Shown here: one piece after another, positions 12,705 through 16,893 of the stretch
Layout: each line of letters starts with the position of its first letter
How positions within the stretch are numbered: the stretch's first letter is position 1
Source of the DNA: Firmicutes bacterium CAG:460
GTDB taxonomy: Bacteria > Bacillota_I > Bacilli_A > RF39 > UBA660
NCBI GenBank assembly: GCA_000437355.1
Contig: FR899774.1
Location: 114,595 to 178,594, forward strand
DNA: 64,000 nucleotides
Reading direction: 5' to 3'
Program-made: the position numbers and the translations under genes
The notes under the pieces: model-generated
Databases searched by the model: none
Told to the model about the DNA's origin: nothing
What the model saw: only the letters and a program-made list of their open reading frames with translations

Positions 12705-12730
12705 AATACTTCCTTTCATTCGGAAGTATT
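12705..12730 (-). terminator. Hairpin plus T-run directly upstream of the mnmE start, overlapping the mnmE SD and -10
   Basis: AATACTTCC (12705-12713) pairs with GGAAGTATT (12722-12730). On the minus strand it is followed by TTTTTT, then the ATG. A TGTTATAAT extended -10 (rc, around 12728-12736) overlaps the upstream arm. Confidence 0.5.
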
Positions 12731-12860: not shown

Positions 12861-14177
12861 TCAACATCCTTTTACATTATGAACTAATATATTACTTTCT
12901 GATACATAATAAGTATGGTTATTTGCTACCTCAAAATTATAAACAATATTATTTTCTTTCATATATTCAATTTTATTTATGTTTATAAGTTCATTATTAC
13001 TATCTAATAATTTGTCAGTTAATTTCAAATCTTTAACAGCTATCCATTCGTAGTTGTTATTTCTTAATACATAAAATCTATGATATGGTGTAACTCTAAT
13101 TATTTCATTATTTAAATATAAATTATAAATTTCAATATCTTCATGAATAAATGTTTTTGTAACTTTGTTTAATTCAACTTTATTTGTTGTTTCATTGTAT
13201 GAGTATACAATGTCATTAACTCTAATGTCTTCAATATTTTTATAACCATTTTTAGTAAATATTTTTGTACCAGCTGTAAAACAAGATACAGTTACAGTTT
13301 CGGTTGTATATGTTTCAGATTTATTTCCCTCATTATCAATTATATACACTGTAAAATTAAATTCTCCTCCATTACAAAAAAGTCTATCATCCGTCGGTAT
13401 ATAATATGTAAATTCATTTAAAGATCTTGATTGTTGTTCAAAATATTCTCCTTCTTTACTTGGATTAGTTTTTTTTGCTTTAATATAAGAAGTACTGATC
13501 TCATTTTTGCTTGTATATTGAATATTTAATTTTATAACCCTCCAGTCTGCACTTACAACTGTAATAGAGTTAATAACAGGTTTTGATGCTTTAGTTGTAC
13601 TACTTAATGTATAATTAGATGATTTATTGCCTTTTGTATCATCAACATAAACTACAATATTATACGTTGTGCTATCATCAAGACTACTAAATGTATAAGT
13701 ATTACTGTTACTTTCTGTAAATGTTGTTCCATTATCTTTAGAATAATAATATTTATTTACATCAAATGTTCCCTTTTTAGATGTAGAATTTATCGTTATT
13801 GTACTATCTGTTACTTCTGTTACGGATGCGATTATCGTTGGTAAAATTAATTTATCAAAATAAATATAGCATTTATCTGACATATTTCCTGTCATTAAAA
13901 TAACTTTTCTTGTATCATCCCAACTTAGTTCTCCACCATTTTCACATTTTGATAATGTTGCATTAAAAAGATATCCAGTTGTTGGCCAATTTTCTCCAGA
14001 AGACATAATATAATCTCCACTATCATTTTCTAAATAATATGATAATAAATTTTTCTTTTTTCTAACAACTAGATTGTTCTCATCTTGAAATTCAATTTTC
14101 TCATTATTAGAAATTACATTTATTGTTATTGTGCATGCGATAAATACAGATGCTACTATCGCTAATTTTTTTCTCAC
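12861..14177 (-). CDS. Predicted lipoprotein with two FN3/Ig-like beta modules and a C-terminal Hint (intein/Hedgehog-type autoprocessing) domain
   Basis: GTG start with TAAGGA SD. Lipobox VFIAC (Cys16). The Hint domain spans residues 299-434: CFTAGTKIF (block A), TPYHRF (block B TxxH) and NHTYYVSESNILVHN (blocks F/G). Only VKGC follows. Confidence 0.75.
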   Translation of the reverse strand: MRKKLAIVASVFIACTITINVISNNEKIEFQDENNLVVRKKKNLLSYYLENDSGDYIMSSGENWPTTGYLFNATLSKCENGGELSWDDTRKVILMTGNMSDKCYIYFDKLILPTIIASVTEVTDSTITINSTSKKGTFDVNKYYYSKDNGTTFTESNSNTYTFSSLDDSTTYNIVVYVDDTKGNKSSNYTLSSTTKASKPVINSITVVSADWRVIKLNIQYTSKNEISTSYIKAKKTNPSKEGEYFEQQSRSLNEFTYYIPTDDRLFCNGGEFNFTVYIIDNEGNKSETYTTETVTVSCFTAGTKIFTKNGYKNIEDIRVNDIVYSYNETTNKVELNKVTKTFIHEDIEIYNLYLNNEIIRVTPYHRFYVLRNNNYEWIAVKDLKLTDKLLDSNNELININKIEYMKENNIVYNFEVANNHTYYVSESNILVHNVKGC

Positions 14178-14213
14178 TATATCACATCCTTACTTAATAA
14201 TATAATATTATTT

Positions 14214-14251
14214 TAAGCCAAAATGGCTTAAATGTCAATAAGCCATTTTGG
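14214..14251. promoter_or_regulatory. Two copies of a palindromic operator-like site in the divergent promoter region between the Hint gene and the XRE gene
   Basis: TAAGCCAAAATGGCTTA (14214-14230; AAGCCA/TGGCTT inverted repeat) and TAAGCCATTTTGG (14239-14251), which matches the reverse complement of the first site. Confidence 0.45.
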
Positions 14252-14282: not shown

Positions 14283-14528
14283 ATGAATAGACTTAAAGAA
14301 TTACGTGAAGATAAAGATATAATACAGAAAGATATAGCTAAAATACTAGGAATAACACAGACTGGTTACTCTAAATATGAAGTTGAAACTAATGATATAC
14401 CAACTGATGTGTTAAAAAAATTAGCTAAGTTTTATAATACCTCAATTGATTATTTATTATATCTTACTGATGAGAGAAAACCTTATCCTAAATCTATTAT
14501 GGACATAGAAAAAACAAGTTCAAAATAA
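14283..14528 (+). CDS. XRE-family helix-turn-helix transcriptional regulator
   Basis: LKELREDKDIIQKDIAKILGITQTGYSKYE..IPTDVLKKLAKFYNTSIDYLL is the canonical Cro/C1-type HTH. Confidence 0.85.
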   Translation: MNRLKELREDKDIIQKDIAKILGITQTGYSKYEVETNDIPTDVLKKLAKFYNTSIDYLLYLTDERKPYPKSIMDIEKTSSK

Positions 14529-14875: not shown

Positions 14876-15074
14876 GTTACTTATTCCTTTCACAAATTAA
14901 TTTTATAATATTAATTTATACTAAAAATAAGTATATATTATATTCTTTATAAAATAAATTTATACAGGCAATAATTTATTATGGTTATAGACATTTTCTT
15001 TACTTATGAAACTAAGAGATTATTGATTATTTTGAAATAATACTTTATAATTTAGCTAGAATATGGAGGTTACT

Positions 15075-15395
15075 ATGAAAAAGTTACTATATGTAAGTAT
15101 AATTTTTGTTGCTGTTTTGGGTATTTCTATTTATATTAATGGTAATAAAAAATTAGATAGTAATATAAATAATGATAAGTATGATACTTTAGGTTTATTA
15201 CTTGAAACTGAAGTTGGTTCTGGAATTTATGAAACATCTAGTTCTGATACTTACCCAACTAGTGGTTATAAATTTAATAGTGAGTTATCGAAATGTGAAA
15301 ATGGCGGAGAACTTTCTTGGGATGATGTAAATAAAAAAGTGGTTTTTTCAGGAAATGTTTCTGATAAATGTTATATCTATTTTGATAAAGAATAA
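15075..15395 (+). CDS. Small secreted/membrane-anchored protein, paralogue of the N-terminal module of the Hint lipoprotein
   Basis: ATG at 15075 with GGAGG SD and an N-terminal hydrophobic anchor. SGIYETSSSDTYPTSGYKFNSELSKCENGGELSWDD..GNVSDKCYIYFDK aligns with residues 53-109 of the 12861-14177 product at about two-thirds identity. Confidence 0.7.
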   Translation: MKKLLYVSIIFVAVLGISIYINGNKKLDSNINNDKYDTLGLLLETEVGSGIYETSSSDTYPTSGYKFNSELSKCENGGELSWDDVNKKVVFSGNVSDKCYIYFDKE

Positions 15396-15552: not shown

Positions 15553-16893
15553 TTATAGTTTTGTCTCAGATATGTATCTTTTTAGTAAGAATGTTAAAAA
15601 ATATGGAAATGTGTAAAATTTACCATTAAAACCAATGTTTTTACTACATAACTTAATACCATATTTTATATCTTTGTACTTTTCGCTATTTATCAAGTTG
15701 TTCAATGAAACAGTTGCATTATCATTTGCTTTAACTTCAACTGGAATTAATGAATTTTTATCTCTAATAAAGAAATCCATTTCTATTGTGCCTTTTTCAT
15801 TTTTATAAAAATACAACCTGTATCCTTCTTTAACTAGCATTTCCCCAATAATATTTTCATATATTGCACCTTTATAAGTATTAAAATTATTATTTTTTCT
15901 TAAATCTTCTTGAGCTTCATCATCTAATGATGCAATTAATAATCCAGTATCTGAGAAATATAATCTATAATTTTCTGGATTATAATTTCCTTTTAAAGGT
16001 AGTTCACAGACCTCCATGCAATATGATATATTCACTATTCCAGCATCAGACAACCAATCTGATACACCTCGATATTCACGATTTCTAGCACCTTCAGTTA
16101 TTTTTGAAATTTGAAATTTCTTGTTTTCATTTCCTAAAAATGCAGCTATCTTTCTATATGCATTTAAAACTCTTGCTTTATCTAAACCTTGAGCATATTT
16201 TGCTATATCCTCTTCATAGTCAAGTAATATTTGTTTTTGCATATCTAGGATGCCACTAAAGTTTTTTTCCTCTACAAATTTAGATACAATGGCTGGCATA
16301 CCACCAACTAACATATATTCTTTAAATAATTCCATCATCACATTCATTTCTGTACTTGATAAAGGTGTACAATTTTTCATACATACATAAAGGTCCTCTA
16401 TTTGACTTTCTTTATAACCTTTAGCCCATAAAAATTCTTCAAAATCCATTGAATACATAATGTAATCCTGTTTATTACCTACACTATTTGACTCAATTTC
16501 ATTATAATTAATGCCCATCATTGAACCAGAACATATTACATCAAACCTTTTATCAATATTAAACGACTTTAATGATGTTGCACAATTAATACAATCTTGA
16601 ATTTCATCGAAAAATATTAATGTTTCGCCAGGTTCAAAAACAAGCTCATTATTAATTAATGATATATTTTTAATTATTTCATCTACTCCAAAGCCACTGT
16701 CAAATATGCTTTTATATTCTTTATGTATTGCAAAATTTATTTCAATAAAGTTTTTATAATTATTTTTCGCAAAATTTTCTATTGCATCTGTTTTTCCTAT
16801 TTGTCTAGCACCTTTTACTATAAGTGGCATTTTAAAATCTGAGTTTTTCCAATCTATTAAAAATTGGTCAATTTTTCGCTTTAATCTTGGCAT
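15553..16893 (-). CDS. AAA+ ATPase of the AAA_14/DUF4143 type
   Basis: Walker A GARQIGKT and Walker B LIFFDEIQ. The long C-terminal region has the DUF4143-like layout. GAGGTGA SD upstream of ATG at 16893. Confidence 0.75.
   Translation of the reverse strand: MPRLKRKIDQFLIDWKNSDFKMPLIVKGARQIGKTDAIENFAKNNYKNFIEINFAIHKEYKSIFDSGFGVDEIIKNISLINNELVFEPGETLIFFDEIQDCINCATSLKSFNIDKRFDVICSGSMMGINYNEIESNSVGNKQDYIMYSMDFEEFLWAKGYKESQIEDLYVCMKNCTPLSSTEMNVMMELFKEYMLVGGMPAIVSKFVEEKNFSGILDMQKQILLDYEEDIAKYAQGLDKARVLNAYRKIAAFLGNENKKFQISKITEGARNREYRGVSDWLSDAGIVNISYCMEVCELPLKGNYNPENYRLYFSDTGLLIASLDDEAQEDLRKNNNFNTYKGAIYENIIGEMLVKEGYRLYFYKNEKGTIEMDFFIRDKNSLIPVEVKANDNATVSLNNLINSEKYKDIKYGIKLCSKNIGFNGKFYTFPYFLTFLLKRYISETKL

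Follow-up and report, generated by a model that had tools for sequence, protein, structure and literature searches.

A conserved family of predicted surface proteins ends in an intact, toxin-less bacterial intein-like Hint domain

Introduction

Bacterial intein-like (BIL) and pre-toxin HINT (PT-HINT) domains have been known since 2003, with type-A BIL domains reportedly going back to work by Amitai and colleagues in 2003 and by Dassa and colleagues in 2004. To our knowledge, their biological role has been documented only as that of presumed toxin-releasing peptidases. Here, we analyzed a gene within a stretch of 64,000 nucleotides from Firmicutes bacterium CAG:460 (assembly GCA_000437355.1, contig FR899774.1, positions 114,595 to 178,594; the whole stretch is called the window). 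Its 438-residue product, the window protein, is a predicted surface protein that carries a Hint domain of the PT-HINT/type-A BIL kind at its extreme C terminus, followed by four residues and no toxin.

Type-A BILs form a thioester at their first residue (Cys1) and cleave at their C-terminal Asn (Mills et al. 2014, PMC4031507; also PMC5874633, PMC7765530). They can ligate their flanks without a Cys, Ser, or Thr at position +1, as the amine freed by Asn cyclization attacks the thioester, but cleavage products dominate (PMC4031507; also PMC5874633, PMC7765530). BIL2 of BUBL passes its N-extein to Lys ε-amines of other proteins and thereby forms isopeptides (PMC8616854). In Hedgehog, a second Cys near the end of the Hint domain, C143, is the carrier of a branched thioester intermediate (PMC12054796). 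In polymorphic toxins, the toxin domain is immediately preceded by the pre-toxin HINT, as described by Zhang et al. (2012, PMC3482391).

Results and Discussion

The window protein ends in a Hint domain with intact catalytic blocks

A sequence-only reading of the window had placed Hint blocks at residues 299 to 434 and had proposed a hidden Markov model search and an AlphaFold model as checks; both confirmed the assignment, well outside what chance would give. The Pfam model PT-HINT (PF07591) matched residues 306 to 434 over model positions 2 to 136 of 137 (E 4.9e-17; 62.9 bits against a cutoff of 27.7). Of the solved proteins in the PDB, the one closest in sequence by phmmer was 2LWY, a BIL domain from Clostridium thermocellum (E 2.2e-19), the CthBIL4 structure reportedly determined by Aranko and colleagues in 2013. 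The AlphaFold2 (AF2) model had a mean predicted local distance difference test score (pLDDT) of 82, with about 90 in the Hint domain, and showed a Hint fold that Foldseek aligned to 2LWY with a TM-score of 0.88. Tetrahymena BUBL BIL2 was the second-best structural match (TM-score of 0.78); the structures of this ciliate domain are 6TMM and 6Y75, and it represents ATP-independent, ubiquitin-like conjugation by a BIL.

All catalytic blocks were intact in the window protein and were kept across the alignment of its family: Cys1 (Cys299 in CFTAGTKIF, nucleotides 13281 to 13283), the TxxH block (TPYH, residues 363 to 366), block F (NNHTYYV, residues 419 to 425), and block G (LVHN, residues 431 to 434, nucleotides 12876 to 12887), which ends in the His433-Asn434 pair. 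The domain measures 136 residues and has no homing endonuclease insert. The scissile bond is preceded by Ser298 (Ser or Thr at −1), and the residue after His-Asn is Val in the window protein and Ala, Val, or Ile in the family. Judged by sequence and by the predicted fold, which agreed in every respect tested, the domain is a member of the PT-HINT/type-A BIL group. N-terminal thioester formation at Cys299, as proposed before, is the natural expectation for such a domain. The accompanying statement that splicing is impossible does not hold, as splicing by type-A BILs needs no +1 nucleophile (PMC4031507).

The likeness to type-A BILs comprises sequence, fold, length without an endonuclease, the Cys1, TxxH, and His-Asn motifs, and a nonnucleophilic +1 residue, and it extends to the surroundings, since the Hint domain adjoins a hypervariable region of a nonconserved secreted protein. 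However, the BIL and PT-HINT domains described to date are internal and have a substantial, often toxin-bearing C-flank, whereas only four residues (three to nine in the family) follow here. Because the C-flank is so short, the Hint domain of the window protein has nothing to release or ligate but a tiny conserved peptide. A canonical intein was rejected as an identity, given the Val at +1 and a host that is an accessory surface protein rather than a conserved protein with an insertion at a conserved site.

With Hedgehog and Hog proteins, the window protein shares a predicted secreted N-terminal cargo and a terminal Hint domain whose Cys1 thioester would modify the cargo C terminus. Its second Cys, at position 140 to 141 from Cys1, recalls Hedgehog C143, a comparison made by position number only. 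The differences are that it lacks a sterol- or adduct-recognition region (SRR/ARR), keeps the His-Asn pair that Hog domains lack, has Ser/Thr instead of Gly at −1, and resembles BILs, not Hog domains, in sequence. The tail of 4 residues and the absence of any match to PF01079 (Hedgehog/Hog) at an E of ≤1 in a Pfam scan of the window protein likewise led us to reject membership in the Hedgehog/Hog family. The comparison with Hedgehog and BILs drawn in the sequence-only reading is thus apt as an analogy but does not extend to Hedgehog kinship. BUBL BIL2, beyond its structural similarity, sets a precedent for transfer by a BIL to Lys, and position +2 of the family tail is a conserved Lys; however, the N-extein of the window protein is an Ig-like surface module rather than a ubiquitin-like one, and its setting is bacterial and presumably extracytoplasmic. 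Polymorphic toxins share the same Pfam domain, a Sec-type export signal, a cassette-like mosaic makeup, and an accessory place in the genome. They differ in that no toxin or immunity gene is found here and the variable cassette lies before the Hint domain, not after it. A polymorphic toxin system was rejected as an identity, as only four residues follow His-Asn and the next gene is mnmE, and the homologues are arranged likewise.

The terminal, toxin-less layout is conserved and under purifying selection

The description of an extreme C-terminal Hint domain with a four-residue tail and no toxin was confirmed: VKGC is followed directly by TGA TAA. TGA is a stop codon in this genome, where it terminates 39 long open reading frames (ORFs). 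Readthrough of TGA (genetic code 4) was ruled out by these 39 ORFs, by the tandem TGA TAA, and by orthologues ending in TGT TAA. The window protein represents a cluster (P0002) of 81 member sequences that are 99 to 100% identical. Beyond this cluster, a word-indexed search yielded a family of proteins of 338 to 438 residues that combine the same small N-terminal domain (N-module) with a terminal Hint domain. All 22 complete homologues end 3 to 9 residues past His-Asn, none carries a toxin-sized extension, and this layout holds across family identities down to about 50%. No toxin-bearing member with an N-module and a Hint domain was found in the word-indexed search or in an HMMER search.

Two syntenic orthologues from different species (P0017 and P0018), each with a divergent XRE gene upstream, were used to estimate selection. 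Their Hint domains gave a ratio of nonsynonymous to synonymous substitution rates (dN/dS) of 0.22 at a dS of 0.68, and the N-module gave 0.26; the tail AKSPC is identical. The constraint on this Hint domain is no weaker than that on the N-module. Because all 22 homologues are terminal and the Hint domain is under purifying selection, the layout does not reflect an isolated truncation. No toxin or immunity gene was found downstream in the window or at the P0017, P0018, P0003, and sister species loci, where the downstream genes are housekeeping or unrelated ones. At the P0017 locus, a convergent gene for a 69-residue DUF4177 protein (L045 7046-7255, minus strand), the sole small gene close by at any of these loci, abuts the stop codon of the Hint gene; in the P0018 species, an unrelated ORF of 321 residues takes its place. 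An immunity function for the DUF4177 gene is improbable.

A sister species carries the Hint gene at the same site, in the order jag, XRE, XRE, Hint gene, mnmE (L065 6001-7296). Compared with the window gene, the N-module of this allele is 100% identical (dS of 0.03), the fibronectin type III (FN3)-like module is 90% identical, and the Hint domain is 88% identical (dN/dS of 0.26), whereas the Ig-like module shows only 36% amino acid identity (dS of 1.28). By these sequence comparisons, the sister allele is a mosaic in which the Ig-like module has been swapped as a cassette upstream of the Hint domain, the reverse of the arrangement in polymorphic toxins. Since the Ig-like module is hypervariable and the Hint domain is not, this pattern points to the former as the likely interaction surface.

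The tails of the family are mostly of the form [AV]-K-x(1-2)-C (VKGC, AKIC, AKVC, AKGC, AKGPCF, VKAPC[K], AK[ST]PC[V/Q], AKEPC, TKAPC, IKSPCAPST, and AKVPQACI), with the exceptions YAI, VKAPIKE, and NKSMD; Lys is the conserved residue at tail position +2. The kept His-Asn together with the conserved tail suggests that the C-terminal junction still matters or takes part in the reaction. Lys directly follows His-Asn in 73 of 169 internal PT-HINT domains, and junctions of tandem arrays read HN-K-G-G-C(FLAGT), in which the Cys is Cys1 of the next Hint domain; this closely resembles HN-V-K-G-C of the window protein. By sequence, the family tail looks like the linker and first residue of a lost second Hint domain, conserved since. 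A tail Cys was rejected as a general feature of terminal Hint domains, as 33 of the 69 terminal domains had a Cys at +3 to +8, compared with 67 of the 169 internal ones.

Terminal Hint domains recur on several kinds of surface protein

The sequence-only reading had treated the gene as a singular oddity, but the architecture turned out to be conserved and to recur on surface proteins of several kinds. Residues 290 to 438, used as the query of an exhaustive HMMER search, gave 18,967 matches. Defining a Hint domain as terminal when at most 20 residues follow His-Asn, we counted 69 terminal domains among 238 His-Asn-ending domains from the best HMMER matches and the family, an upper bound because some may be gene fragments. 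His-Asn was kept in 69 of 77 terminal Hint domains and 169 of 177 internal ones, and Cys1 was kept in 74 of 75 and 160 of 166, respectively. Catalytic residues are thus retained at similar rates in terminal and internal Hint domains.

On a FastTree phylogeny of 222 Hint domains, the terminal/internal state required 21 changes, compared with about 57 (minimum of 48) when the labels were shuffled; near-copies inflate the clustering of the terminal state on this tree. In this phylogeny, the terminal state appears heritable, yet it has switched many times. Within the family to which the window genome belongs, PT-HINT was present in only 4 of 81 sampled genera; complete terminal-Hint ORFs were verified in two of those four, with housekeeping genes downstream.

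Some terminal Hint domains sit on proteins with a prepilin leader, in the order N_methyl, Big_7, PT-HINT with tails of 10 to 11 residues, and another closes a Listeria-Bacteroides-repeat (Flg_new) protein with the tail KGGAI. One genome of the same family (G056) holds three type IV prepilin-leader Hint proteins with the motif KGFTLIELLAV and a Big_7-like module (L055 814-1947, L058 1474-2625, and L060 1024-2553). In the third of these (L060), the pilin leader and the Hint domain are followed by 159 further residues. A further toxin-less class consists of proteins of 280 to 330 residues with an LXG-like coiled-coil N terminus and a terminal Hint domain (P0155, P0185, P0248, P0223, P0188, and P0189), whose tails are basic and 2 to 5 residues long (RKTR, RKTK, VKTR, or RK). 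Some proteins (P0122, P0147, P0165, P0172, and others) carry two to four PT-HINT domains in tandem, linked by HN-K-G(1-4)-C; cleavage at both junctions of such an array would free each linker as a tri- to pentapeptide.

Proposed activity and alternative explanations

We propose that the window protein is a surface stalk composed of a membrane anchor, the β-structured N-module, the FN3-like module, a hypervariable Ig-like tip, and a competent type-A BIL Hint domain. Sec-dependent export with the N terminus inside would place the Hint domain at the membrane-distal tip. After export, an N-to-S acyl shift at Ser298-Cys299 would hold the C terminus of the stalk on Cys299 as a thioester, the resolution of which would detach the 15-kDa Hint domain; cyclization of Asn434 could also sever the VKGC tail. 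The acyl acceptor might be water (simple shedding or maturation), the amine on the freed tail of the same protein (BIL-type splicing to stalk-VKGC), or an external amine or thiol, which would couple the stalk tip covalently. We assign a probability of roughly 0.6 to the combined reading that the Hint domain is active and that its terminal, toxin-less state is a selected one. On the comparative evidence given above, the terminal position is best explained as such a selected state and not as the decay of a polymorphic toxin.

Several points weigh against this reading. The dN/dS values of 0.2 to 0.26 speak for a constrained fold but do not single out catalysis. The 21 or more switches between the terminal and internal states imply that toxins have been lost or gained frequently, and some terminal Hint domains elsewhere may be remnants. 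The tail Cys is not general, and tails of terminal Hint domains in related genomes lack it. A Hint domain that did no more than shed itself would bring no obvious benefit, and a useful product is a guess; the activity of the window protein, like that of any terminal BIL, is a prediction.

The layout could have arisen if a Sec-exported stalk-PT-HINT-toxin protein had lost its toxin and immunity cassette and kept the Hint domain as a functionless leftover, with the tail [AV]K-x-C as a relic of the linker and Cys1 of a following tandem Hint domain. The Pfam classification as a pre-toxin HINT and the described position of HINT directly before the toxin (PMC3482391) would fit such a history, as would the similarity of HN-V-K-G-C to the tandem junction, the repeated change of state on the tree, the 159 residues after the Hint domain in the relative L060, the location in an accessory islet, and the sparse distribution among genera. 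However, every complete family member is terminal, neither large search returned a toxin-bearing member, and purifying selection acts on a Hint domain that was already terminal in both syntenic orthologues. The conservation of the catalytic residues and of the tail, together with the lack of an orphan toxin or immunity gene nearby, also argues against a leftover, and we consider this explanation decidedly unlikely. A Hint fold that serves uncleaved in vivo as a binding or adhesion module at the stalk tip is very improbable. Hint folds can serve noncatalytic roles, and the paralogues carry assorted, presumably functional, head domains at the same C-terminal position; yet if the fold alone mattered, one would not expect Cys1, TxxH, and His-Asn to be so strictly conserved, and it is the Ig-like module ahead of the Hint domain, not the Hint domain itself, that is hypervariable.

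Closer to the selected, active state that we favor, and overlapping with it, is a self-removing pro-domain: the Hint domain would be a transient C-terminal cap (an intramolecular chaperone, export aid, or timer) that holds the stalk tip folded or inert during export and then removes itself, through BIL-type splicing or cleavage and without external transfer, so that the mature stalk, with or without VKGC, would be the sole lasting product. The retention of His-Asn in 90% of the terminal Hint domains and the conserved family tail fit the use of both junctions, type-A BILs are able to splice and to cleave (PMC4031507), and terminal Hint domains on prepilin-leader proteins would need to be removed before filament packing. 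On the other hand, nothing indicates that the stalk requires a chaperone, 17 N-module paralogues do without a Hint domain, and a spliced tail of four residues has no evident function; overall, this version seems unlikely.

Transfer of the stalk to an external acceptor is unlikely. So is its stronger form, that the terminal BIL is a built-in extracellular protein ligase, independent of enzymes and ATP, that fixes the stalk tip to an amine elsewhere. In such a ligase, the acyl group might be relayed to the tail Cys (at about position 140, compare Hedgehog C143) or to Lys+2 (compare the BUBL isopeptide), and candidate partners would be peptidoglycan, a partner N-module or pilin-like subunit, or a host glycoprotein. 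If true, this would constitute a route to covalent surface assembly or adhesion that does not depend on sortase and would explain the recurrence of terminal Hint domains on pilin-leader and repeat-rich surface proteins. Acyl transfer to an external acceptor, if it occurs, would parallel the chemistry of Hedgehog and BUBL in bacteria and might yield a useful natural ligation tag.

A conserved, selected family with nothing to release argues for a second BIL role, namely, the maturation or activation of the C terminus of a surface protein, and with its ectodomain of about 300 residues, the window protein offers a small, tractable model for bacterial Hint function outside the cell. Our literature search found no paper on a terminal, toxin-less PT-HINT or BIL domain, with a prior mention in the primary BIL papers (Amitai 2003, Dassa 2004) being possible; a search for terminal Hint domains in combination with pilins, surface proteins, or thioesters returned nothing specific. 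As new, we regard the combination of a type-A BIL as the last domain of a predicted surface stalk, a conserved tail of three to nine residues, an unannotated N-module family, and a variable cassette upstream of the cleavage site.

The N-module belongs to an expanded family of predicted surface proteins

The positions of all modules are listed in Table 1. The Ig/FN3-like modules that had been described from the sequence were supported by AF2 (pLDDT of 80 to 96) and by Foldseek, which matched the middle of the protein to FN3 tandems (E of about 1e-7); the Pfam fn3 match is weak. The lipobox claimed at the N terminus fared less well. The motif VFIAC (residues 11 to 15) fits the PROSITE-type pattern [LVI][ASTVI][GAS]C, but position −1 is Val or Thr in the homologues P0012, P0013, and P0006, and neither P0024 nor any of the 17 other N-module paralogues of the genome has the Cys; in these paralogues, a plain signal-anchor transmembrane helix spans the lipobox positions. 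Given that homologues do not keep it and the 17 paralogues lack it, the lipobox is doubtful, and a signal anchor appears at least as likely as a lipid anchor. The genome encodes Lgt and LspA, so the window protein alone may still be lipidated.

The N-module contains two nearly invariant Cys residues. Its model, although confident (pLDDT of 87), had no fold match in the PDB by Foldseek (best E of 1.8), and it belongs to no Pfam family; a Pfam scan of six N-module paralogues returned no significant domains. An identity as a type IV pilin was rejected, as the N_methyl motif is missing and the model lacks a PDB fold match. In the window genome, the N-module occurs in 18 ORFs including the window gene, which is the only one with a Hint domain; one of the ORFs encodes a stand-alone N-module of 110 residues (15063-15395, plus strand). 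The 18 copies (e.g., G000 C14:4049-5599, C33:207630-208949, and C32:37303-38949) represent a large expansion for a genome of 1.1 Mb and flag an unannotated surface family in an abundant uncultured gut lineage. The expanded unit consists of a transmembrane anchor and a β domain of about 65 residues with two conserved Cys residues (SKCENGG...SDKCY[IV]YFD), and the C-terminal domains attached to it differ among the copies. The genome also encodes three sortase homologues, one of which (G000 C19:1106-1597) lies upstream of an N-module paralogue (C19:2656-3609) at a distance of about 1 kb. No LPXTG motif was found in those N-module paralogue C termini that were inspected.

The Hint gene forms part of an islet between mnmE and jag

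The window genome comprises 1.1 Mb in 34 contigs at 26% GC, and its relatives are gut metagenome-assembled genomes labeled uncultured Bacilli, Tenericutes, or "Clostridium sp. CAG:609." The GTG start codon of the Hint gene is preceded by a Shine-Dalgarno sequence, AGGA(T)G, and by a promoter-like site; on the other side, 160 nucleotides of intergenic DNA with a terminator-like hairpin separate the gene from mnmE (Table 1).

Table 1. Features of the Hint gene, its product, and its flanks, in window coordinates
Feature	Position	Strand	Remarks
Terminator-like hairpin and T-run, between Hint gene and mnmE	12705..12730	−	1 found vs 0.1 expected
Whole coding sequence, 438 aa	12861..14177	−	GTG start; TGA stop, TAA directly after
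C-flank VKGC, residues 435-438	12864..12875	−	Then TGA TAA; family form [AVI]-K-x(1-3)-C
Hint domain, PT-HINT/type-A BIL kind, residues 299-434	12876..13283	−	Pfam, phmmer, Foldseek
Hypervariable Ig-like module, residues 200-298, ends at Ser298	13284..13580	−	AF2 β-sandwich (residues 200-290), pLDDT ~80
FN3-like module, residues 113-195	13593..13841	−	AF2 pLDDT ~96; weak Pfam fn3, E 0.018
N-module, residues 44-110, small all-β, C78 and C103 nearly invariant	13848..14048	−	AF2 pLDDT 87
MRKK and hydrophobic stretch, residues 1-25 (signal anchor, or lipoprotein signal peptide with Cys15)	14103..14177	−	Read from sequence
Promoter-like site TTGACA-17 nt-TAAAAT, upstream of GTG	14210..14238	−	11/12 matches; consensus match only
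XRE-family helix-turn-helix (HTH) regulator, 81 aa, divergent from Hint gene	14283..14528	+	Pfam HTH_3, E 2e-14

The divergent XRE gene is a recurrent partner of the Hint gene. The same 81-residue HTH neighbor is present in the sister species, and the P0017 and P0018 loci have an equally placed HTH protein of 76 residues that is nonhomologous to the one in the window. Homology among the XRE partners of different loci was rejected, as no BLAST similarity was found; they have the arrangement alone in common. Farther along the islet, the window contains a gene for a DUF4143/AAA_14 ATPase (15553-16893, minus strand), but the islet of the sister species lacks both this gene and the stand-alone N-module ORF and has only an ORF of 50 residues in their place (L065 4730-5303). 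What is conserved of the mnmE-jag islet is its XRE-XRE-Hint core.

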